From: Calditrichia bacterium
GTDB lineage: Bacteria; Calditrichota; Calditrichia; RBG-13-44-9; J075
Reading direction: 5' to 3'
DNA length: 64,000 bases
NCBI GenBank assembly: GCA_050633245.1
Contig: JBOEGD010000030.1
Span: 32,001-96,000 of the forward strand
Below, one piece after another: positions 6,800 through 60,802 of this stretch. The notes below the pieces were generated by a model, which did not search any database, was not told the DNA's origin, and was given only the letters and a program-made list of their open reading frames with translations. The translations under genes were made by a program, and so were the position numbers. Within the stretch, counting starts at the first letter, position 1. Each line of letters starts with the position of its first letter.

Positions 6800-9121
6800 A
6801 TGGCCTCAAAGCAGTCTGACAGTATCGACGCGCCGTTGGGTGACGATAAAAAACCCACCGGAAACGGGGTTTCCAAGGAACGTTTGGAAACCGCTCAGTT
6901 TGAAGAAGTAACCCCTCCCTTAACTATCGTAAAACGCGATGGCCGATCCGTCCCTTTCGACGTTTCCAGAATAGAGAAAGCAATTGACAGCTGCTTCAAA
7001 AGTTTTGGTCGTAAGCCCTCCACGCCAGTTTCTAAGATTGCCGAGCAGGTTGTGAACATTGTTGCGGTTAAATTTGACGAACCAACAGTCGAACAGGTCC
7101 AGGACATTGTAGAAATGGTTCTACAAGCCGCTGGAGAGTATGAAGCGGCGAAACACTATATCCTTTATCGCGCTGAGCAGTCTATAAAGCGCAAGGATCG
7201 ACCGGTTCCGGAAGATGTTCGCGAGGCATTTGAAGTCTCGGACATTTATTTTCCCACACAGCTTCAGAAATTTCAGTTTTATGACAAATATTCTCGTTTC
7301 AACTATGAGCTCGGTCGACGTGAGACATGGGTCGAAACGATTGATCGTGCTGTTGACTTTCTGAAAGAGCTTTCAGAGTTTCGATTGCCCGCATTAACTT
7401 ATGAACGCGTTCGTATGGGAATGTTGGAAATGCGCGCTATGTCTTCCATGCGTCTGCTCGCCATGGCTGGCTCCGCAGCACGACGCAATAATATTTGCAT
7501 ATACAACTGCTCTTATATGCCGGTAGATAGCCTGGACTCATTCGTAGAAGCGCTGATTATCTCCATGTGTGGTTGTGGTGTCGGTTATTCCGTCGAAAGC
7601 AAGTACATCGAGAAATTCCCTCGTATTCGCAGACAAACCAATGCCGCTCCGGTTCGCTATGTTGTAGAGGATAGTGCCGAAGGCTGGGCAGATGCACTTC
7701 GCGTCGGTTTGCAAATCTGGATGGATGGTGGCGATGTTCAGTATGATTATTCTCAAATTCGCCCGGCTGGCGCACCGCTTCGTATTAAAGGCGGACGTGC
7801 TTCCGGTCCTGAGCCGCTACGCAAGATGCTGGATTTCTCCCGTGGCCGTATTCTGGCACGTCAGGGTGGTTTCCTGCGCTCGCTTGATGCACACGACATG
7901 ATGTGTGCCGTTGGTAATGCCGCCGTATCCGGAGGCGTTCGCCGCACGGCAATGATTTCTCTCTTCGACATCGATGATATCGAAATGCGCAACTGTAAGA
8001 ATGGTGACTTCGAGCGTTTAAACAGCCAACGCTGGAATGCCAACAACTCTGCCGTCTGGCCAAATCGCCCGCTGTCTCAGGCGGAAGTATCTCGCTTCGT
8101 ACTACAGATGGATGAGTCTGGACGTGGAGAGCCGGGCATCTTCAATCGCCAGGCTGCAATTCAATCGCGCCCGGAACGACGACTGGAAGCAGAATTCGGC
8201 ACAAACCCATGTGGCGAAATCATTCTGCGTCCTTATGAATTCTGTAATCTATCTATCGCCATTGCTCGCGAAGAAGATACGCTCGAGACGCTATCTGAAA
8301 AGGTTGAACTGGCAACGATTATCGGAACCATTCAGTCGATGGCAACACACTTCCCGGGACTGCGTAAGCAGTGGCGCGAAAACTGCGAAGAAGAACGCTT
8401 GTTGGGCGTAGACGTAACCGGACAGCTGGACAGTAAAGCTGCAATGGATCCTGAAGTTCAGCGCAAGCTGCGTCAGGTAGCCGTTGAAACAAACGAGCGT
8501 ATTTCCGGCATGCTGAATATTCCGCAATCTGCTTCCGTTACCTGCGTAAAACCATCAGGGAACTCTTCACAGCTATTCAACTGTGCACCGGGAATTCACG
8601 CACGCTGGTCGAAGTACTATGTTCGCAACGTTCGCGTAAGCTCTCATACACCGTTCTTTAAAGTTCTGCGAACCGCAGGCGTTCCGATGGATCCGGAAAA
8701 TGGTCAAATGCCGGAAACAGCAGAGACTTGGGTTATTCACTTTCCGGTGAAGGCACCTGAAGGCTCCATTACGCGTAAAGAACGCAGCGCAATTCAGCAA
8801 TGTGATTATTGGTTGCAGAATAAAACCGAATGGACAGAGCACAATCCCAGCGTAACGATTACGTATCAGGAAAGTGAAGTGATTGACCTGATTAAGTGGA
8901 TTTGGTCAAACCAGGATAAGATTGGCGGCATGGCCTTCTTACCGGCCTTCGATGCGATGTACGATCAGATGCCTTATGAAGAGATCACTGAAGAAGAGTA
9001 TAAGAAGCTGGCCTCTCAGTTCCCGAATATCGACTTCTCGAAGCTGTATCGCTATGAGGAAGAAGATTACACCACTGCCGCTCAGGAATTGGCCTGCCTG
9101 GCTGGAAACTGCGACATCTAA
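6800..9121 (+). CDS. nrdJ: Class II (B12-dependent) ribonucleotide reductase with N-terminal ATP cone
   Basis: ATP cone (IVKRDGR...VEQVQDIVE..L), TNPCGEI, CVKPSG and C-terminal CxxxxC; no beta-subunit gene nearby; SD GGAGG. Confidence 0.9.
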   Translation: MASKQSDSIDAPLGDDKKPTGNGVSKERLETAQFEEVTPPLTIVKRDGRSVPFDVSRIEKAIDSCFKSFGRKPSTPVSKIAEQVVNIVAVKFDEPTVEQVQDIVEMVLQAAGEYEAAKHYILYRAEQSIKRKDRPVPEDVREAFEVSDIYFPTQLQKFQFYDKYSRFNYELGRRETWVETIDRAVDFLKELSEFRLPALTYERVRMGMLEMRAMSSMRLLAMAGSAARRNNICIYNCSYMPVDSLDSFVEALIISMCGCGVGYSVESKYIEKFPRIRRQTNAAPVRYVVEDSAEGWADALRVGLQIWMDGGDVQYDYSQIRPAGAPLRIKGGRASGPEPLRKMLDFSRGRILARQGGFLRSLDAHDMMCAVGNAAVSGGVRRTAMISLFDIDDIEMRNCKNGDFERLNSQRWNANNSAVWPNRPLSQAEVSRFVLQMDESGRGEPGIFNRQAAIQSRPERRLEAEFGTNPCGEIILRPYEFCNLSIAIAREEDTLETLSEKVELATIIGTIQSMATHFPGLRKQWRENCEEERLLGVDVTGQLDSKAAMDPEVQRKLRQVAVETNERISGMLNIPQSASVTCVKPSGNSSQLFNCAPGIHARWSKYYVRNVRVSSHTPFFKVLRTAGVPMDPENGQMPETAETWVIHFPVKAPEGSITRKERSAIQQCDYWLQNKTEWTEHNPSVTITYQESEVIDLIKWIWSNQDKIGGMAFLPAFDAMYDQMPYEEITEEEYKKLASQFPNIDFSKLYRYEEEDYTTAAQELACLAGNCDI

Positions 9122-19280: not shown

Positions 19281-19310
19281 ACAATTTTGGCCATTTTTTT
19301 AACGCCAAAC

Positions 19311-19475
19311 TGGAGCATTGTTAGAATGGAGCAGTCTTGGGAGTTAAAGCGTTCGTACTTTATTAGAAAAAAAGAAGCAAATTTTGAATTGTTTTTTTTC
19401 TCTGCCCAAACTGGAGCATTGTTAGAATGGAGCAGTCTTAATTAGAAAAAAGATCTAAAATTTTGGACTTTTTTA
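19311..19475 (+). repeat. REP-like doublet element, copy 1 (28-bp repeats at 19311-19338 and 19412-19439)
   Basis: TGGAGCATTGTTAGAATGGAGCAGTCTT twice with a 101-bp period. Confidence 0.85.
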
Positions 19476-21008: not shown

Positions 21009-21183
21009 AGCTACTCATCCAATGCTAAAAATTTATGACAAAGTACATTACAGCTCTAATATTACAGATAACTGTTAAAAGAATAGTAGGATATATTTCA
21101 AAATATTCAAAACAAGGTCAATTTTAGTTGACGTTCAAAAAGAATCCGTTCTCAAAATTGCCATATTTTGATCAAATTCCTAT

Positions 21184-21211
21184 AAGACTGCTCCATTCTA
21201 ACAATGCTCCA
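21184..21211 (-). repeat. Single 28-bp REP-like repeat (reverse orientation)
   Basis: Exact reverse complement of 19311-19338. Confidence 0.85.
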
Positions 21212-21301
21212 ATGTTTTTCGGATTTCAGCGACAACATGCAAACAAGCAGATTTCACCAAGTATTGATCAGTTTGGAACGGACTGGAATAGTTTTGCTCA
21301 G

Positions 21302-23944: not shown

Positions 23945-24607
23945 CTAACGATCACTTTTACATAGGTTCTTTAATACCGCTCGATCAACAATGGTTATCT
24001 TTCCACGTTGCTGCCGCACAATCCCAGCCTTGGAAAACTGCTCAAGAACCCGACTGATTGCAACCCGCGAGGAGCCTAATTCACGGGCAAGCTCTGCATG
24101 CGTCACTTCAACCACCATATTTGTTGGCTGCATCAATGAAAGCAGATAATGCGCGATTCGCGAATCGAGACGTTGAAACGCTATTTTTTCCAGCGTTGTT
24201 AAAATTTCGGTTAGCCGAACAGACATGCTGGCAAACAAAAATTCACGCCATACATCATACCGGGCAACCCAATCGCGTAATAAGTCGGCGGGGATTAGCA
24301 CAGCCTGAACGTCCGATTCTGCTGTTGCAAAAGCGGGAAACATGTTGTGGCTTAACAGACAGAATCCCGTAAGAATACAGCTCTGCTGCCTGGTAACATG
24401 ATAGAGCGTGATTTCCCGCTCGGTATCGCCGGGCTTATAGACGCGAATATTTCCAGATATCACAATAAAAAAGTGCGTGCAGCTGCCGCCTTCATAAGCC
24501 AAAATTTCACCGGCCTTCCAGGACATTGAAATAGAATTTTTTTCGAAAAGTTCGACGATGTTATCAGGGGCGTTTTGGAGGAACTGTGGTAAAAATGCCG
24601 TGTCCAT
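23945..24607 (-). CDS. Crp/Fnr family transcriptional regulator
   Basis: cNMP-like domain (REITLY..SCILT) and HTH THAELARELGSSRVAISR. Confidence 0.9.
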   Translation of the reverse strand: MDTAFLPQFLQNAPDNIVELFEKNSISMSWKAGEILAYEGGSCTHFFIVISGNIRVYKPGDTEREITLYHVTRQQSCILTGFCLLSHNMFPAFATAESDVQAVLIPADLLRDWVARYDVWREFLFASMSVRLTEILTTLEKIAFQRLDSRIAHYLLSLMQPTNMVVEVTHAELARELGSSRVAISRVLEQFSKAGIVRQQRGKITIVDRAVLKNLCKSDR

Positions 24608-36928: not shown

Positions 36929-38218
36929 ATGAGTCGCCTGAAACAAGCAGAAATGATGGAAAAAGATTGGAAAGAGAACAAACGTTGGGCGGGAATTAAA
37001 CGCTCTTACACTGCCGAAGAAGTAACAAAAATGCAGGGATCAGTCGTGTTGGAATATACGCTGGGGCAGCTTGGAGCAAAGCGCCTATGGGATCTTATGC
37101 ACAGCGAAGACTTTGTGAATTCGCTCGGTGCGCTAACCGGCAACCAGGCCGTCGAGCAAATCCAGGCCGGGTTAAAAGCCATATACCTGAGTGGATGGCA
37201 AGTTGCTGCTGACGCAAACCATGCCGGAATTATGTATCCCGATCAGAGCCTTTATCCTGCAGACAGCGTGCCGGGCGTTGTGCGTAAGATTAACAACGCT
37301 CTGATGCGCGCAGATCAAATTGATCACATGAACGGCAATACCGATATTCACTGGTTGGCTCCAATCGTTGCCGATGCCGAAGCCGGATTTGGTGGCGCTC
37401 TAAACGCATTCGAACTCATGCGCGCCATGATCGAATCTGGTGCTGCCGGAGTTCACTTTGAAGATCAGCTGGCCTCCGCTAAAAAATGCGGCCACATGGG
37501 TGGAAAAGTTTTAGTACCTACCGATGAGTTTGTTCGCAAGCTAATCGCGGCGCGTCTGGCAAGCGATGTCATGGGTGTACCGACCGTCCTATTGGCAAGA
37601 ACAGATGCATTTAGCGCCACGCTTATTACCAGCGATGTAGATGAATACGATCATCAATTTATCGATTATGATGCAGAACGTACTATCGAAGGGTTTTATC
37701 GCCTTAAAGGCGGCCTAGATCGCGCAATTGCTCGTGGTCTTGCCTACGCGCCATATTGCGACGTTATCTGGTGCGAGACAGCAACACCCGATCTGGATGA
37801 TGCTCGAACGTTCGCCGAAGCAATCCACGATAAATTCCCAGGTAAACTTCTTGCATATAATTGCTCTCCATCTTTCAACTGGAAGCGCCATCTGGATGAA
37901 GCGACCATCGGAAAGTTCCAGCGTGAACTTGGCGCCATGGGATACAAATTCCAGTTCGTAACGCTGGCCGGATTCCATACGCTGAATACAAGTATGTTTG
38001 AGTTAGCTCTGGGCTATCGTGATAAAGGAATGGCTGCTTATTCGAAGCTACAGGAAAGAGAATTCGAGCTGGAACGCGATCATGGTTTTCGCGCTGTGAA
38101 GCATCAAAGTTTTGTAGGTGCAGGGTATTTTGATGAGATTCAGAATATCATTACCGGTGGAGCCGCATCAACCCGGGCACTGGAAGGCTCTACCGAAGAA
38201 GAGCAGTTTCACGACTAA
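36929..38218 (+). CDS. aceA: Isocitrate lyase
   Basis: KKCGHMGGK signature, [29 protein letters not shown] spacing favours the second ATG (36929) over 36926. Confidence 0.97.
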
Positions 38219-38299
38219 GTAACTCACAAACTATAGATATCACTTGAACGCAGCTTATTGCCAATTCAGGTGGTATCTACTCCCAAAACAATTTTGAGC

Positions 38300-38334
38300 A
38301 AAAAAAAACACGGCAGGCCAAAGACCTGCCGTGT
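38300..38334 (-). terminator. Intrinsic terminator (minus strand)
   Basis: ACACGGCAGG-TCTTTGG-CCTGCCGTGT followed by a T-run. Confidence 0.88.
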
Positions 38335-38377
38335 AACCCAAATAACCAAAACAAAGGAGAGAGAAGACTCACCTTCT
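38300..38377 (-). ncRNA. Candidate trans-acting sRNA (~78 nt)
   Basis: Own -10 and activator site, 5' hairpin, single-stranded C/U- and G/U-rich seed, intrinsic terminator, and long complementarity to two distant loci. Confidence 0.65.
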
Positions 38378-38383
38378 TATGAG

Positions 38384-38426
38384 AATATACACCGTGAACT
38401 TACGTTACCATGTGATACCCTGCACA
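38384..38426 (-). promoter_or_regulatory. Class II CRP/FNR-type activated promoter of the candidate sRNA
   Basis: -10 TATATT (38389-38384); TGTGC-N6-TCACA (38426-38411) centred at -41.5 for +1 at 38377; poor -35. Confidence 0.55.
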
Positions 38427-38565
38427 AAAAGTTTACTTTCTCCCCCTTGCAACCCAACTAAAGATACATCATTTTTTTTCTATTTACAATCCACAACATA
38501 TAATTCTTCAAAAAACGCTCATCAGGCGTTATCTTTGCCCCTGTAAACCACAAAGAAACAGCATG

Positions 38566-40266
38566 TTAGCGATTTTCAATCACAATTTTGAACGGACGCA
38601 CCTGATTTCGACCATTTTCTTTTGCAGCGTAAAGGGCACTGTCAGCAAACCGAATCAGCTCTTCGGAATGCAGAGAATCGTTGGGGAAATTGGCAACGCC
38701 AATTGATATCGTCACCTTTTTATGAGGCAGCTGTTCTTCCTGAGGGAAAGGCGAGGTGGCAATAATATTGCATATTTTTTCTGCAAGCCGGATACCGCCG
38801 GCTTTATCAAGCTCAGTGCATATTATTACGAATTCTTCGCCCCCGTAGCGAGCGACAATATCACTACTTCGCGTATTTTCCAGCAATAAGCGAGCAACCT
38901 TACGCAATACAACATCACCGGCCTGATGGCCAAATGTATCGTTATATACTTTAAAAAAATCGATATCCAGCATCAGCAAACAGAAGTTGGTTTGATTGCG
39001 TTCAGAACGACTGACTTCACGTAAAAGCTGTTGATGAAAATAGCGATAGTTATACAAACTGGTAAGATGATCGGTTATAGCATCTTTTTCGGCGCGAAGA
39101 AATAGTTCCGTAAGCTGCTGACGAAGCTGAAGGTTTTGATGTGCAAGACTGGCTGCATTTATCAACATCTCCAGCAGTTTTACATCGTAAGGGGTGATTC
39201 TTCCGCTTATCGGTCGATCGATATAGAGAAATCCACCAAAATAAAACATCTCCGAACTCAAGTATTCATGCAGCTGACTTCGCACCATTTCAATATCCCG
39301 CTCAGACTGATGATTAAGTCCCGGTAAAAGCGCATCAAGCTGACGGCGAATATTTGTCGTCCCCGGAAGAGCGTCTCCGGCGGGCATCGATGTGCCCAAT
39401 ATCCCGAATAAAAACTGAGTTGCGCTTATCTCGTCTAAAATGCGATTGAAGTTGTCATCTTTAACTTTTCTGGAGCTGCTTATATAAAGCAGTGGTTTCC
39501 GCGAAAACAGACTTTGCACGAGTGTCGCATGGTAGGGCAATCGAATTTTCGACGCTTCGATATCGCTGAAGCCCGTAGAATAGGTTACACCAATTTGCAT
39601 AGACTCGTGGTTCACCTCTAAAAATGCGCAGCGCTGAAAATTGAAGTGGCTACTTATTTGCTCAACCAGCTGATGTTTTACCTCTTCCGGCGAGGTACAA
39701 AGCTGAAGGCCAGCAATAATATGCAGTAAACTTTCCAGCTTACCCGAGTAATTACGCAGCTTATGCGTGCTGTCCTTCAACAAATAGTTTGCCGTCTGAA
39801 GCTGCTTGATTTTATCGGTAAGATGATTAATGAGTGTTCGCTGATACTCTTTTTTATAGAACGCTCGGGACTCTTCATCAAGCACTTCGCGTTTTCCTGC
39901 TAAAAATTCGCTGATCTGCCGGGAAAAATTTTTCGTATCGATTGGCTTGGTAATATAGCCATCACACCCTGCAGTTAGAGACAGCTCCCTGGCATGAGAC
40001 TCACGCGTTGCTGTCAGGGCGATAATAATGGTTTTAGAGAGCTCGGGAAGGGTTTTTAATTGAGTGGCAAGATCAATACCGCGCATATCCGGTAGGTTCA
40101 AATCCATCAGGATTAAATCAGGAATAATTTCCTGTGCCTTTTGCAGGCCACTCATTCCATCTGGCGCTTCGAAGCAGTCAAATGGAGAGTTATCCAAAAC
40201 TTTTGCTATCAACATTCGAGATGCGTGATCATCTTCCACATATAAAACTTTTGGCGCATTTACCAT
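38566..40266 (-). CDS. Diguanylate cyclase (REC-GAF-like-GGDEF)
   Basis: N-terminal receiver (EDD..MD..KP); RSSD I-site and GGEEF. Confidence 0.9.
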   Translation of the reverse strand: MVNAPKVLYVEDDHASRMLIAKVLDNSPFDCFEAPDGMSGLQKAQEIIPDLILMDLNLPDMRGIDLATQLKTLPELSKTIIIALTATRESHARELSLTAGCDGYITKPIDTKNFSRQISEFLAGKREVLDEESRAFYKKEYQRTLINHLTDKIKQLQTANYLLKDSTHKLRNYSGKLESLLHIIAGLQLCTSPEEVKHQLVEQISSHFNFQRCAFLEVNHESMQIGVTYSTGFSDIEASKIRLPYHATLVQSLFSRKPLLYISSSRKVKDDNFNRILDEISATQFLFGILGTSMPAGDALPGTTNIRRQLDALLPGLNHQSERDIEMVRSQLHEYLSSEMFYFGGFLYIDRPISGRITPYDVKLLEMLINAASLAHQNLQLRQQLTELFLRAEKDAITDHLTSLYNYRYFHQQLLREVSRSERNQTNFCLLMLDIDFFKVYNDTFGHQAGDVVLRKVARLLLENTRSSDIVARYGGEEFVIICTELDKAGGIRLAEKICNIIATSPFPQEEQLPHKKVTISIGVANFPNDSLHSEELIRFADSALYAAKENGRNQVRPFKIVIENR

Positions 40267-50995: not shown

Positions 50996-51028
50996 AAGAT
51001 TGGAGCATTGTCAGAATGCTCCAATCTT
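50996..51028. repeat. Palindromic form of the REP-like repeat
   Basis: AAGATTGGAGCATT-GTCAG-AATGCTCCAATCTT, just after the stop of the upstream gene. Confidence 0.8.
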
Positions 51029-52949: not shown

Positions 52950-52966
52950 ATCAAATGCTATGCCAG
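52950..52966 (-). promoter_or_regulatory. Sigma54-type promoter (-24/-12)
   Basis: CTGGCATAGCATTTGAT on the minus strand. Confidence 0.65.
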
Positions 52967-53065: not shown

Positions 53066-53099
53066 TGCAAATTTTGCAGCGAGTCTTGCAGGATATGCA
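53066..53099. promoter_or_regulatory. Tandem enhancer (UAS) sites TGCA-N5-TGCA
   Basis: 53066-53078 and 53087-53099, 21 bp apart. Confidence 0.6.
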
Positions 53100-53170: not shown

Positions 53171-56100
53171 TTATTTGGACAACACCATTTTTCGGGAGGA
53201 TACAAATGAGCCTGCATTTATTTGATAGAAATAAACACCCGACGGGAACTGTGCAGCATTAAAGTCCAGTGTGTAAGCACCAGCACTCTGACGCTCACTT
53301 ACCAGGGTTGCTACTTTCTGTCCGGCAATGTTGAAGATAGTAACAGTTACGTCGCTTGATTGCGGAATAGAGTAGCGGATCGTAGTCGTCGGGTTGAACG
53401 GATTCGGATAGTTCTGCTCAAGCTCGAAGTTATTGATCGTTCCATCGAGCAGATCATCCTCAATACCTACGATTGGCGAGAACTCTACTACATCGCCATT
53501 TGGCAGTGCAGCAAAGAGTCCAAAAGCAGGACCGTTCTGGTTTGCTGAAGGCGTTAGGAAGCCAGAGGCAAAAACCTGAGCGGCTCCACCGGCAAGACCG
53601 GAAAGGTCAGCAGTAAAAGAAGCCACTACGGTTGAACCACTCGCATCCGTTACATCGAGTGTGTATGAAGCAGCAGGGACGCCAACATATCCCGTAATGT
53701 CACCATATGCCGCGTCGTCTACCAAGGTTGCAACACCGCGCGCAACGACGTCGACAGTTGGTGCATCGGAGGAGCCATGCAGCGCAGAGAACTCAACTGT
53801 ATTAACATCAGTAGAAGCTTCTTGACCTGTTGGATTGATGAACAGACCGAAAGCAGTACTTCGTCCATCCGGGTTCGGAGCAAATGCACTCGGATCGAGA
53901 ACACCATTGGCAATAACCACATAGGTCTCACCAGGAGTCAGAGTTACATTGAAATTAGCTAATGTATCACCAACACCACCGCTATTCGGACCGGCAACAC
54001 CAATGTCAATCGGCGTGCCCGCAGGTGCATCAATAAATGCAGTGGCATCACGGAAGGCAAAATCATCAAGAAGAATTCCACCGTTAAGATAAATATCAAC
54101 AACTGCTGCGCCAGGATCAGCGGCATTGTGAATGACTTGAACACGCGCTGTGTTGATCGCAGGAAATTCTACGATGTCACCCGTTGGTAAGGCTGCGAAT
54201 AAACCGAAAGCTGCGCCATTTTGATTTGCTGAAGGATCTAAAAATCCGGAAGCGAAAACAGTAGCGGCTCCGCCGGCGAGTCCCGAAAGATCAGCGGCGA
54301 AGGATGCGACCGTTACTGCTCCGCTTCCATCTTTTACGTCTAATGTATATGCTGCAGGGGGAACACCAATATAGCCGGTGATGTCACCATATGCTGCGTT
54401 GTCTACCAGTGTCGCAACACCCCGCGCATCAACATCAACAGTCGGCGCATCGGAAGAACCATGAACAGCAGCGAATTCAACGGTTGCCGGATCGCTGGAA
54501 GCTTCCTGGCCAACCGGATTAATAAATAAACCAAAAGCAGTGCTACGGCCATCAGGGTTCGGAGCAAAAGCTGTTGGATCGAGAACACCATTGGCAATGA
54601 TTACATACGTTTCACCAGCTGTAAGCGTCGCAGTAAAGTTCGCAAGCGTATCGCCTACACCGCCACTGTTAGGGCCAGCAACACCAATATCAAGCGGCGT
54701 GCCCGCAGGAGCATCAATAAATGCTGTTGCATCGCGGAAAGCAAAGTCGTCTAGAAGAAGTCCGCCGTTTAGGTAGACATCGACAATCGCTGCTGCCGGG
54801 TCGGCTGCATTGTGAATAACTTGAACACGGGCGGTTGTGATTGCCGGGAACTCTACAACATCACCTGTAGGTAAGGCTGCAAATAGCCCGAAAGCTGCAC
54901 CGTTTTGATTTGCTGAAGGATCCAGAAAACCGGAGGCGAACACCTGGGCTGCCCCGCCGGCAAGTCCGGAAAGGTCAGCTGCAAAGGACGCTACGGTTAC
55001 AGTACCTGTTGCATCTTTTACATCAAGCGTATAAGCTGCTGGTGGGACACCAACGTAACCGGTAATGTCGCCATAAGCTGCATCATTTACCAGAGTAGCA
55101 ACGCCGCGGGCATCGACATCAACTGTGGGCGCATCGGAAGAGCCATGTAAGGCAGAAAACTCAACCGTCGCTGGATCGGTGGATGCTTCCTGACCGAGTG
55201 GGTTTACGAACAGGGTAAAAGCAGTACTACGACCATCAGGGTTCGGCGCGAAAGCTGTTGGATCAAGAACACCGTTGGCGACAACAACGTAGGTCTCACC
55301 TGGTGTCAAAGTCACATTAAAGTTAGCAAGCGTATCGCCTACGCCACCACTATTCGGGCCAGCGACACCTATATCAATTGGTGTACCTGCAGGCGCATCG
55401 ATAAATGAAGTAGCATCGCGGAAAGCAAAATCATCAAGAAGAAGACCGCCATTGAGATACACATCCACAAGCGCAGCGCCTGGATCAGCCGCATTGTGAA
55501 TTACCTGGACTCGAGCAGTATTCGCTGCAGCACTTCCTTTATGAATAACGTGATCGACCCACAAATTGTCTGATGAGCTTCCTGAAGGACCTCCATCAGT
55601 TATGTAATAATTGATGGCGACGAATGGCTCGCTACCGGCAAATGCAGACATATCAAACGCATAACGATTCCAGGAACTAACAGGGCCATCGACTTTAAAG
55701 TAGCCAACAAGGTCTGTAAAGCTACCAAGTGAACTGTCGGTAGTCGAAACCCAAACACGAAGCGAATCAGGAAAATTACCATCGATTGCGCCAGCATAAA
55801 AGATTAGACTATCACCAGACTCAACGGCCGGTAATTGAGGTGAGATGATATATTCATCAATCAGAAACCCATTCGCATTATTAAAGCTGCTGAAAAAGAA
55901 ACTTTGTCCGGCTTCCGGGAAAATAGAATCACCGCTGAGAAAACCGACATCTTGACGAAATTCCCATCCGGCACCACTGCCGTCGTTATCAATCAACTGC
56001 CAACCGGCGGGCAGCGTAGTGGTATCAAATGTTTCTTCAAACTTAACGTTTTTCTCAGCAGCAACTTCCTGATTGCCGGGAACACCGCGCTCAAATTCAG

Positions 56101-56200
56101 TCGCGCGAATGCGATCTACAATTTCATCCTGCGCCAATAACGACATTGGCAGAACAAAAGCTGCAATCAGCAAACCTCGTAGTAAAACAGTAAACTTCAT
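53171..56200 (-). CDS. Secreted protein: cleaved-adhesin-like domain + 3 tandem DUF4397-type repeats + T9SS-like C-terminal domain
   Basis: ATG at 56200 with SD GGAGG; signal peptide; GWQLIDNDG..DEYIISP; ARVQVIHNAADP three times at a 684-nt period; QNYPNPFNP. Confidence 0.85.
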   Translation of the reverse strand: MKFTVLLRGLLIAAFVLPMSLLAQDEIVDRIRATEFERGVPGNQEVAAEKNVKFEETFDTTTLPAGWQLIDNDGSGAGWEFRQDVGFLSGDSIFPEAGQSFFFSSFNNANGFLIDEYIISPQLPAVESGDSLIFYAGAIDGNFPDSLRVWVSTTDSSLGSFTDLVGYFKVDGPVSSWNRYAFDMSAFAGSEPFVAINYYITDGGPSGSSSDNLWVDHVIHKGSAAANTARVQVIHNAADPGAALVDVYLNGGLLLDDFAFRDATSFIDAPAGTPIDIGVAGPNSGGVGDTLANFNVTLTPGETYVVVANGVLDPTAFAPNPDGRSTAFTLFVNPLGQEASTDPATVEFSALHGSSDAPTVDVDARGVATLVNDAAYGDITGYVGVPPAAYTLDVKDATGTVTVASFAADLSGLAGGAAQVFASGFLDPSANQNGAAFGLFAALPTGDVVEFPAITTARVQVIHNAADPAAAIVDVYLNGGLLLDDFAFRDATAFIDAPAGTPLDIGVAGPNSGGVGDTLANFTATLTAGETYVIIANGVLDPTAFAPNPDGRSTAFGLFINPVGQEASSDPATVEFAAVHGSSDAPTVDVDARGVATLVDNAAYGDITGYIGVPPAAYTLDVKDGSGAVTVASFAADLSGLAGGAATVFASGFLDPSANQNGAAFGLFAALPTGDIVEFPAINTARVQVIHNAADPGAAVVDIYLNGGILLDDFAFRDATAFIDAPAGTPIDIGVAGPNSGGVGDTLANFNVTLTPGETYVVIANGVLDPSAFAPNPDGRSTAFGLFINPTGQEASTDVNTVEFSALHGSSDAPTVDVVARGVATLVDDAAYGDITGYVGVPAASYTLDVTDASGSTVVASFTADLSGLAGGAAQVFASGFLTPSANQNGPAFGLFAALPNGDVVEFSPIVGIEDDLLDGTINNFELEQNYPNPFNPTTTIRYSIPQSSDVTVTIFNIAGQKVATLVSERQSAGAYTLDFNAAQFPSGVYFYQINAGSFVSSRKMVLSK

Positions 56201-56331
56201 AGAAGCCTCCAGATAAGATAGGGTTTTGGTTATTTGGGTTACACTTAAATTATCATACATACGTTGACTGCCTTGGGTTGAAGCAGACTTCGCTAAATAG
56301 TCAATTCGAAACCGCTTATGCCCGTTTTAAT

Positions 56332-56348
56332 ATCAAAGGTTGTGCCAA
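56332..56348 (-). promoter_or_regulatory. Sigma54-type promoter (-24/-12)
   Basis: TTGGCACAACCTTTGAT on the minus strand. Confidence 0.7.
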
Positions 56349-56436: not shown

Positions 56437-56470
56437 TGCAAAATTTGCAGCAGTGATTGCAGAATTTGCG
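56437..56470. promoter_or_regulatory. Tandem enhancer (UAS) sites TGCA-N5-TGCR
   Basis: 56437-56449 and 56458-56470, 21 bp apart. Confidence 0.6.
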
Positions 56471-57465: not shown

Positions 57466-57630
57466 TGGAGCATTGTCAGAATGGAGCAGTCTTGGGATTT
57501 TTGAGACTCTGTACTTAATTATAAAAAAGACATGAAATTTTGAAAAATATATTCAAAATCTCACATTGGAGCATTGTCAGAATGGAGCAGTCTTTATTAT
57601 AAAAAACACCGAAAATTTTGAAAAAAAAAT
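57466..57630 (+). repeat. REP-like doublet element, copy 2 (28-bp repeats at 57466-57493 and 57567-57594)
   Basis: TGGAGCATTGTCAGAATGGAGCAGTCTT twice with a 101-bp period. Confidence 0.85.
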
Positions 57631-59314: not shown

Positions 59315-60802
59315 TTAATCCTGAATATCCCACTCTTTAGTTTTGTAGTGCACCCAGCGGAGGGAAACGCCCATCATCTCAGCGGTATGCGTTTTATTTC
59401 CTTCGCAAGATCGCAGTGTCTTCAACAGTAAAATACGAGAGACATCGTCTAACGTCATTCCAGAATCAATCCGATCTTGCTGCTGAAGACCGCGCACAAT
59501 AACATCCGATTCCTGAATTTCTTCCCCCGAAGACAATACAACAGCACGTTCAATTGCGTTTTCCAGTTCCCGCACATTGCCGGGCCAGCCATAAGCCTGT
59601 AATGAATCCATTACATCCGATGCAAACCCATGCCTGCGTTTCCCCATAGCAGTAGCAAACTTCTTCAGGAAGTGCTCGGCAAGCAGTGGAATATCACTTT
59701 TACGCTCACGCAGCGGTGGCAATTCGATTAGAATAATGCTCAGTCGATAATACAAATCTTCACGAAAGCGACCTTCGCGCACCTCATCGGCTAAATTGCG
59801 GTTCGTTGCCGCAATAATGCGCACATCAACTTTTTTAGGGGAGGCACCGCCAATAGGCATAATCTCTTTTTCCTGTAGGAAGCGCAGTAGCTTCGCCTGA
59901 AGACTCATTGGGATTTCAGCAATTTCATCTAAAAAAAGCGTTCCGGAGTTCGCAACCTCAATTAGACCTTTTTTATCGGCATTAGCACCGGTAAAAGCTC
60001 CCTTTTTGTAACCATACAGCTCGCTTTCCAACAAGTTTTCCGGTAGCGCGGCACAGTTAACGGGAATAAAGGGTCGGTCTTTACGCATGCCATTATAGTG
60101 AACCGCGCGGGCAATCAACTCTTTTCCGGTACCCGTTTCACCAACAATTAGCACCGTTGTCGAATTGTCCAGCACCTTCTTAATAATGTCAAAAACCGGC
60201 TGCATCGACTTGCTTGAACCAACGAGCTCTTTAAACGAGTAAATGCGATTCACTTCCTCTTTCAGCACTTCGTTTTCCTGCCGAAGCGATGCCAGAAGTC
60301 TGGCATTTTCAATCGCGATTCCTGCCTGGTTTGCAAACGCGGCCAAAAAGTCCAGGCTCTTTTGATTGAATCGCGCTTTCTGCCCACGACTGTCAATATA
60401 AATAGCGCCGATTAAAGTACCCTTTATTTCCAGTGGCACGCAGGCAATGGAACGAATTTTTTGCATCACCACCGAATGAGATTGATCAAACTGCTCATCC
60501 GTTAGTGCATCAAATGTAAGGATGGGCTTTTGAGCCTTTATCACACTTTCAATAGCCGTGCTGGAGATTTCACTGCTGTCTGCGCTCTTGCCGCTATCAT
60601 CTGTCCGCGAAGCTTTCGGAACGAGTTCTTCATCATCTCCTTCTTTCAACAACACAAACCCGCGTTCTGCCGAAAGCTGCTTAATGGCAATCTCAAGAAT
60701 GCGCGACAAGAGCGATTCCAGGTTCTGAATGGAATTAATCTCGGCACTCACTTCCACAAGTGCGGATAGATACTGTTCAGGAATGTTCAGAGCATTACTC
60801 AT
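59315..60802 (-). CDS. Sigma54-dependent enhancer-binding protein (GAF-AAA+-HTH)
   Basis: GAF domain, GETGTGKE, GAFTGA, LFLDEI, WPGNVREL, Fis-type HTH. Confidence 0.93.
   Translation of the reverse strand: MSNALNIPEQYLSALVEVSAEINSIQNLESLLSRILEIAIKQLSAERGFVLLKEGDDEELVPKASRTDDSGKSADSSEISSTAIESVIKAQKPILTFDALTDEQFDQSHSVVMQKIRSIACVPLEIKGTLIGAIYIDSRGQKARFNQKSLDFLAAFANQAGIAIENARLLASLRQENEVLKEEVNRIYSFKELVGSSKSMQPVFDIIKKVLDNSTTVLIVGETGTGKELIARAVHYNGMRKDRPFIPVNCAALPENLLESELYGYKKGAFTGANADKKGLIEVANSGTLFLDEIAEIPMSLQAKLLRFLQEKEIMPIGGASPKKVDVRIIAATNRNLADEVREGRFREDLYYRLSIILIELPPLRERKSDIPLLAEHFLKKFATAMGKRRHGFASDVMDSLQAYGWPGNVRELENAIERAVVLSSGEEIQESDVIVRGLQQQDRIDSGMTLDDVSRILLLKTLRSCEGNKTHTAEMMGVSLRWVHYKTKEWDIQD

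Follow-up and report, generated by a model that had tools for sequence, protein, structure and literature searches.

A conserved candidate small RNA and a perfectly complementary 22-nt site in the leader of an adhesin-like gene in a member of the Calditrichota

Minus-strand transcripts of two loci in the genome of a Calditrichia bacterium (assembly GCA_050633245.1) would be perfectly complementary over 22 nt. One locus encodes a candidate small RNA, and the other is the leader of an adhesin-like gene; they lie 18 kb apart within a 64,000-nt stretch of contig JBOEGD010000030.1 (positions 32,001 to 96,000), which we refer to as the window (Table 1). We postulate, giving it about an even chance, that the small RNA is an Hfq-independent antisense regulator that represses the adhesin-like gene. 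A functional, repressing antisense pair is the best single reading of these data; a neutral copying event comes next, and an activating effect of pairing and a shared DNA operator are less likely. The organism is an uncultured marine bacterium that appears to lack the usual RNA chaperones, and a conserved small RNA with a perfectly matched target would offer a way to study both how type IX secretion cargo is controlled after transcription and how target sites originate in a poorly known lineage. If the neutral copy explanation is true, the pair is a small curiosity.

Table 1. Features of the small RNA locus and of the adhesin-like gene, in window coordinates
Feature	Position	Strand	Description
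Candidate small RNA, ~78 nt	38300..38377	-	5' hairpin, CU-rich stretch, unpaired G/U-rich stretch, terminator
Leader-complementary stretch of small RNA	38331..38352	-	final 4 nt (38334-38331) inside terminator stem
Intrinsic terminator	38299..38334	-	12-bp stem (8 GC pairs), 3-nt loop, T9
-10 box TATATT	38384..38389	-	from the three-sequence alignment
CRP-type palindrome TGTGC-N6-TCACA	38411..38426	-	identical in L005
Possible second upstream promoter TTGTAA-17 nt-TATCTT	38461..38489	-	conserved in L005; two sequences compared
Upstream neighbour, response regulator with GGDEF domain	38566..40266	-	small RNA at least 190 nt past its stop
Target gene, 1009 aa	53171..56200	-	signal peptide, Cleaved_Adhesin, six DUF4397 matches in three repeats, T9SS C-terminal sorting domain
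Shine-Dalgarno GGAGG	56206..56210	-	5 nt before ATG; leader site 12-13 nt further upstream
C/A-rich leader site, 22 nt	56223..56244	-	-44 to -23 of ATG; perfect complement of small RNA
Sigma54-like -24/-12 element TGGCAC-N5-TTGAT	56332..56347	-	~130 nt upstream of gene
Two GCAAAWTYTGCA palindrome-like sites, ~21 nt apart	56437..56469		~100-130 nt upstream of sigma54-like element; candidate activator sites

A preliminary description of this DNA had proposed an exact 22-nt complementarity just upstream of the adhesin Shine-Dalgarno (SD) sequence, and direct reading together with searches of the window and the genome bore this out. The 22-mer occurs at 38331-38352 on the plus strand and at 56223-56244 on the minus strand (window searched with up to 3 mismatches); because the two copies are in inverted orientation, it is the minus-strand transcripts of both loci that would be complementary. 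Both of these positions are within the window and together they account for every copy in the genome (count of 2 in 6,345,459 bases on 59 contigs, up to 3 mismatches), on opposite strands, which rules out a widespread repeat. The match stops sharply at 22 nt: the 30-nt flanks, compared without gaps, are identical at 11/30 and 6/30 positions. The interior has the 9-nt period that the preliminary description had pointed out, with TAACCCAAA and TAACCAAAA agreeing at 8 of 9 positions. The same description had noted another 22-nt match arising from simple repeats, and we located it at 688 and 11869, in a low-complexity repeat of ATGA type.

The claim that such a match is unlikely by chance held for random sequence, for which the expectation is about zero (none of 100 dinucleotide shuffles of the window contained any 22-mer match), but less well against the genome itself, which has other isolated intergenic pairs. 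We counted 81 distant two-copy exact matches of at least 22 nt between intergenic regions, most of which belong to diverged repeat families. When “isolated” was defined as two copies at up to 4 mismatches with unlike flanks, 12 of the 81 qualified; six of these 12 were overlaps at contig ends and six were internal, the small RNA/adhesin pair included. At least two of the five other internal pairs resemble shared operator or promoter elements. One is a 23-nt exact direct repeat outside the window (G000:C30:6006-6028 and 7629-7651) that precedes two genes on the plus strand (distances to the predicted starts, 30 nt and 72 nt) and has the appearance of an operator or leader element common to both; another is a palindromic pair on contig C17. 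Processes besides small RNA targeting thus make such matches in this genome, and for this reason both a neutral copy and a shared DNA operator have to be weighed. Three features distinguish the small RNA/adhesin pair: one copy falls in the unpaired stretch of an RNA that is conserved and bounded by a terminator, the other is sense in a leader beside an SD sequence, and the orientation gives complementarity and not identity.

A scan of metagenome contigs for the exact 22-mer retrieved two records (L005 and L006), both orthologous to the small RNA locus. These sequences are ~73 to 74% identical to the window over 6 to 8 kb, and 97 to 100% identical to it across the small RNA unit; this contrast is good evidence for a genuine small RNA gene. 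The three sequences hardly vary between the box TGTATATTC and the T-run. In the comparison with L005, identity was 73% overall, 73% in the GGDEF coding sequence, 79% in the coding sequence of aceA (isocitrate lyase), and 97.5% in the small RNA; it was 42.5% in the 80 nt beyond the terminator and 42 to 68% in flanking intergenic DNA. In the 8.3 kb compared, no 80-nt window is more conserved than the small RNA, which ties for first place, and the longest identical run in that interval (57 nt, 38321-38377) falls within it. An 88-nt stretch across the small RNA gave a fold z-score of -6.1, and both the minimum-energy and the centroid folds leave the G/U-rich seed unpaired between the 5' hairpin and the terminator.

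The genomic context agrees with a free-standing gene. The downstream neighbour, aceA, is convergent, and no minus-strand gene lies downstream of the small RNA, which rules out a cis-acting leader or attenuator. A small open reading frame or leader on the plus strand at 38379 was likewise ruled out: its ATG is absent in L005 and L006, and an indel breaks the reading frame. Together, the empty minus strand downstream and the lack of a conserved plus-strand start codon point to a small RNA gene that stands on its own. We also observed that aceA converges on this gene in the interval 38218-38352 (plus strand), where the two units share a hairpin that has no T-run on the plus strand. Given the missing T-run, a read-through transcript of aceA would be complementary to the small RNA along its whole length and would include the 22-mer of the adhesin leader. 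Among the sequencing runs searched, none of RNA contained this stretch, and the polyA RNA run X15 yielded one read, which fell outside both 22-mer sites.

DNA searches of 40 relatives for the small RNA returned only a terminator-like match in one genome (G020), and a search of 85 genomes of the phylum returned only that same match. The exact 22-mer was absent from the GTDB species genome contigs scanned. Downstream of the orthologues of the GGDEF regulator in eight genomes of the family, we found neither a small-RNA-like element nor a CRP-type palindrome. Rfam gave no match in the window at gathering thresholds; at E values of up to 5, the best sub-threshold scores were those of L20_leader (25.4 against a threshold of 58.7) and RsaE (25.2 against 79), and membership in a known RNA family was ruled out, since no family reached its gathering score. 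At shorter range, strain X1, which is ~94% identical, carries both loci, and contigs of runs X4 and X5 cover them as well. The indels of X1 include one at 38300, in the T-run, and one at 56247, 3 nt upstream of the leader site; among the variants listed, neither 22-nt site contains an indel.

The metagenome contigs scanned contained no second exact copy of the 22-mer, even though L006 comes from a 408-kb contig, which indicates that the small RNA predates the perfect leader site or does not depend on it. Orthologues of the adhesin-like gene in five other genomes of the family, all from other genera, lack the 22-mer motif, and the small RNA is absent from those genomes too. Such a distribution also suits a different explanation, namely that the small RNA is real and the leader site arose recently and neutrally by copying of part of its gene (or the reverse), with no regulatory effect, for instance because the cell never contains both RNAs at once or because the site does not limit translation. 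A perfect 22-nt match suggests copying over stepwise selection and so could be both recent and neutral; its abrupt ends and unlike flanks fit a copying event, as do the missing second copy in relatives whose small RNA is identical, the orthologues without the motif, and the other isolated short exact pairs in the genome. We nevertheless consider a neutral copy unlikely, though it deserves more weight than any other alternative. We are not aware of a process by which 22 nt would be inverted and transferred across 18 kb. The copy is sense in a leader, 12 to 13 nt from the SD sequence, and faces the stretch that the small RNA leaves unpaired. If both RNAs were present together, they could hardly fail to form the 22-bp duplex, for which the predicted net gain is ~-22 kcal/mol.

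The promoter of the small RNA gene was approached through the same three-sequence alignment. The 6 nt that follow the TATATT box vary among the sequences, and identity restarts at the seventh nucleotide, 38377. This pattern, in which a conserved -10 box is followed by six variable nucleotides and then by conserved sequence, places the probable transcription start site at 38377 and hence the centre of the CRP-type palindrome (38418.5) at -41.5, a class II geometry that hinges on the start site so deduced. Class II activators of the CRP/FNR type bind sites centred at -41.5, and the consensus for CRP is TGTGA-N6-TCACA. Three genes in the genome carry an HTH_Crp_2 domain above the cut-off, one of them in the window at ~23963-24160. 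A generic sigma70 scan found no -35/-10 pair at this promoter. We infer from the palindrome and its position that a CRP-family protein controls the small RNA promoter.

Upstream of the CRP-type site is a further conserved block (38431-38489, minus strand), in which a purine-rich stretch could pair with the CU-rich stretch of the small RNA. This block may correspond to a longer isoform or to sites for additional regulators. In the former case, transcription from the possible second promoter would give a form of ~155 nt in which GCAAGGGGGAGA is paired with the CU-rich stretch.

For the target gene, the start codon is the ATG at 56200-56198 and not at 56202; the orthologues begin at the signal peptide, which supports this start. 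The name “adhesin” given to the gene in the preliminary description agrees with the Pfam Cleaved_Adhesin domain, which is the basis of the label. Sigma54 control of the gene is plausible. The consensus for sigma54 promoters is TGGCAC-N5-TTGC, and the element upstream of the gene fits this consensus in its GG and its spacing but has an A for the C of the -12 GC, a single mismatch; matches of this kind occur in the window at the frequency expected by chance (35 against 34.8). The genome encodes a protein with a Sigma54_DBD domain (rpoN), and a gene for a sigma54 activator with GAF, Sigma54_activat, and HTH_8 domains is located nearby, at 59315-60802. The GCAAAWTYTGCA pattern was found at 3 places, with 5 strand-matches where 0.20 would be expected, a post hoc enrichment in which the test is circular because the pattern was taken from the same sites.

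A second sigma54-like element, TGGCAT-N5-TTGAT, is found at 52950-52965 (minus strand), upstream of a gene for a 574-aa BNR/T9SS protein. The third palindrome of GCAAAWTYTGCA type (53066-53078) precedes this second element and is located inside the terminator hairpin of the adhesin-like gene. With the same type of palindrome before both sigma54-like elements, the two genes for type IX secretion cargo may answer to one activator.

Predicted pairing between the two RNAs is strong. A cofold of both RNAs keeps the full 22-bp duplex at the expense of 4 terminator pairs. The preliminary description had added that an adjacent CUCC in the small RNA could also reach the GGAG of the SD sequence; this contact formed only when intramolecular structure was ignored and was absent from the minimum-energy structure of the cofold. 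By duplex energy, the adhesin leader came top of 4889 regions at -37.5, and the best values for shuffled seeds were -29.8, -37.9, -32.9, and -36.0. Since the shuffled seeds (n = 4) reach similar energies, we rejected energy-based target ranking as unspecific.

We propose the following model. A trans-encoded, Hfq-independent small RNA of ~78 nt would be made from the minus strand, from 38377 to ~38300, at a promoter with the geometry of class II activation by a CRP-family protein. Its unpaired G/U-rich stretch would pair over 22 nt with the C/A-rich leader element (-44 to -23), and pairing would most likely lower synthesis of the adhesin-like protein. One point against the model is that the leader site ends at -23, which lies at the outer limit of the region in which pairing classically blocks the 30S subunit, or outside it. 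By one route, the small RNA would mask an unstructured C/A-rich element that loads ribosomes or enhances translation upstream of the SD sequence; by a second, which could act alone or together with the first, the 22-bp duplex could be cut by RNase III, for which the genome has a gene. Independence from Hfq is suggested by the gene content of this genome, which is 97% complete: we found no Hfq (PF17209; five control genomes were positive) and no ProQ.

These elements overlap with an interpretation put forward in the preliminary description, that translational repression links CRP/FNR-type status to the sigma54 output. On the side of the small RNA, it agrees with a conserved unit with an unpaired seed, the palindrome at -41.5, and a CRP-family gene in the window; on the side of the target, it agrees with the sigma54-like element with one mismatch, the palindromes upstream of it, the activator gene nearby, and the favoured 22-bp duplex. 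Transcription of the small RNA and its start site, control by a CRP-family protein and by sigma54, pairing in vivo, and the direction of its effect are all predictions from sequence.

Pairing could also be functional in the opposite direction, activating or stabilising the mRNA by opening a weak hairpin at the SD sequence and start codon or by shielding the leader from nucleases. In the minimum-energy fold of the leader, the region of the SD sequence and AUG is indeed in a small hairpin, and the target site is upstream of the SD sequence without overlapping it. The hairpin persists in the cofold with the small RNA, so that no opening is predicted, and we think activation very unlikely. It is also at odds with the known role of C/A-rich elements upstream of SD sequences as enhancers that pairing silences (PMC3879156).

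The repression model resembles several known systems, each of which differs from it in some respect. In regulation by GcvB, pairing silences translation-enhancing C/A-rich motifs upstream of the SD sequence, and GcvB, like the small RNA described here, presents a G/U-rich single-stranded stretch to a C/A-rich sequence just upstream of the SD sequence (PMC3879156). GcvB is enterobacterial, Hfq dependent, and defined as an Rfam family (RF00022), whereas the present RNA has no Rfam match and occurs in a genome in which no Hfq was found. GcvB also uses a short imperfect seed, unlike the 22 perfect base pairs here, and the phylum and the promoter logic differ as well. CyaR and Spot 42 are CRP-controlled small RNAs of enterobacteria through which a carbon or cAMP-type signal reaches mRNAs post-transcriptionally. 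They are like the small RNA described here in having a promoter with a CRP-type site (deduced here from the -41.5 palindrome and the CRP-family gene in the window) and unlike it in that there is no sequence relation. RsaE/RoxS (RF01820) is similarly Hfq independent, with C-rich or CU-rich motifs able to pair with SD sequences, and its sub-threshold match covers 38306-38378; its 25.2 bits fall short of the gathering score (79), so the small RNA is not a member of the RsaE family, and here contact would be made by a G/U-rich and not a CU-rich stretch. Cis-encoded antisense RNAs processed by RNase III likewise form a long, perfect duplex; the one proposed here would span about two helical turns, in a genome that has an RNase III gene. 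The arrangement differs: the partners described here are 18 kb apart and would constitute a trans pair with cis-like perfect complementarity.

Regulation of this sort is already well known, and it is the length of the perfect match and the Hfq-less lineage that are unusual. A full-text search of the literature found no paper that names “Calditrichota” together with “small RNA,” which suggests that the phylum's small RNAs have yet to be described. A literature search on the control of type IX secretion by small RNAs returned no paper on such a pair of small RNA and leader.

Evidence for a wider regulon of the small RNA is weak. We derived a core motif, TAACCCAAATAACC, from genome-wide exact words of 13 to 14 nt, choosing it after the matches had been seen. 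With up to 2 mismatches, the core has 61 matches in the genome, nine of which are upstream of a gene in the sense orientation; seven of these nine end at -23 to -33, and one of the nine belongs to the Peptidase_C25 gene described below. Between -60 and -11, 8 of 4892 upstream regions contain the core, compared to a permutation mean of 1.56, and none of 400 permutations reached 8, a result to be read with the post hoc choice of the core in mind. The reverse complement of the core, used as a control, was absent from the same 4892 regions. An unbiased test, in which any 14-nt window of the 22-mer could match with up to 2 mismatches between -80 and -1, retrieved 20 genes against a mean of 12.9; 47 of 300 permutations reached 20, and the result is not significant.

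The core matches bear on the possibility that the 22-mer is a double-stranded DNA operator, composed of two 9-bp direct repeats and bound by one protein at both loci, with the complementarity of the transcripts being incidental. The internal direct repeat of TAACCCAAA and TAACCAAAA fits this explanation, as do the C30 (6006 and 7629) and palindromic C17 pairs, which look like shared operators or promoter elements, and several core-motif matches that are located just downstream of -10-like boxes of TGTAT type. A spacing of 9 bp between repeats is off the helical period, and the site would fall in the transcribed part of both units. Conservation at the small RNA locus extends beyond the 22-mer to the entire 78 nt, which means that the RNA accounts for it, and the 8 sense occurrences of the core in upstream regions against none of the reverse complement favour a strand-specific element that acts at the RNA level. 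For these reasons we regard a shared operator as highly improbable.

The best second candidate target is a gene for a Peptidase_C25 protein (gingipain family, T9SS type) with a propeptide and a FlgD_ig tail, at C10:159746, where pairing would comprise 4 + 13 bp. Its leader (in locus L007, G000:C10:159346-163720) has AAACCCAAGTAACC followed by CCCTAT ~33 to 56 nt before the start, like the adhesin leader. Homology between the two leaders was considered and rejected: the C25 leader ranked fifth, and its score of 26 is at the 99.9th percentile and not beyond the tail of the distribution. Another candidate target, at C1:11100, encodes a 145-aa protein that has no Pfam match and is pilin-like by its N-terminal hydrophobic segment.

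We speculate further, while judging the idea decidedly unlikely as a whole, that in a phylum without Hfq and ProQ, genes may come under the control of a conserved small RNA when a 22-nt piece of its gene is copied in antisense into their leaders, giving perfect, siRNA-like duplexes of a length suited to RNase III in place of short seeds. The small RNA would then link a CRP-type signal to surface proteins (the adhesin-like protein, the gingipain-family C25 peptidase, and the pilin-like protein) and would be titrated by convergent read-through from the isocitrate lyase gene.

Two minor observations concern the surroundings of the target gene. At 54835-55890, in the repeat region of the adhesin-like gene, the contig of strain X1 has 370 other letters in place of 1054 nt; given this replacement, the number or form of the DUF4397 repeats differs between strains. 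The intergenic DNA of the window also contains a repeated element, TGGAGCATTGTYAGAATGGAGCAGTCTT, which occurs with its variants at least six times and in both orientations (19305-19440, 21183-21212, 50999-51020, and 57466-57595). Words related to it recur throughout the genome, as illustrated by the 37 near-copies of one 27-mer.
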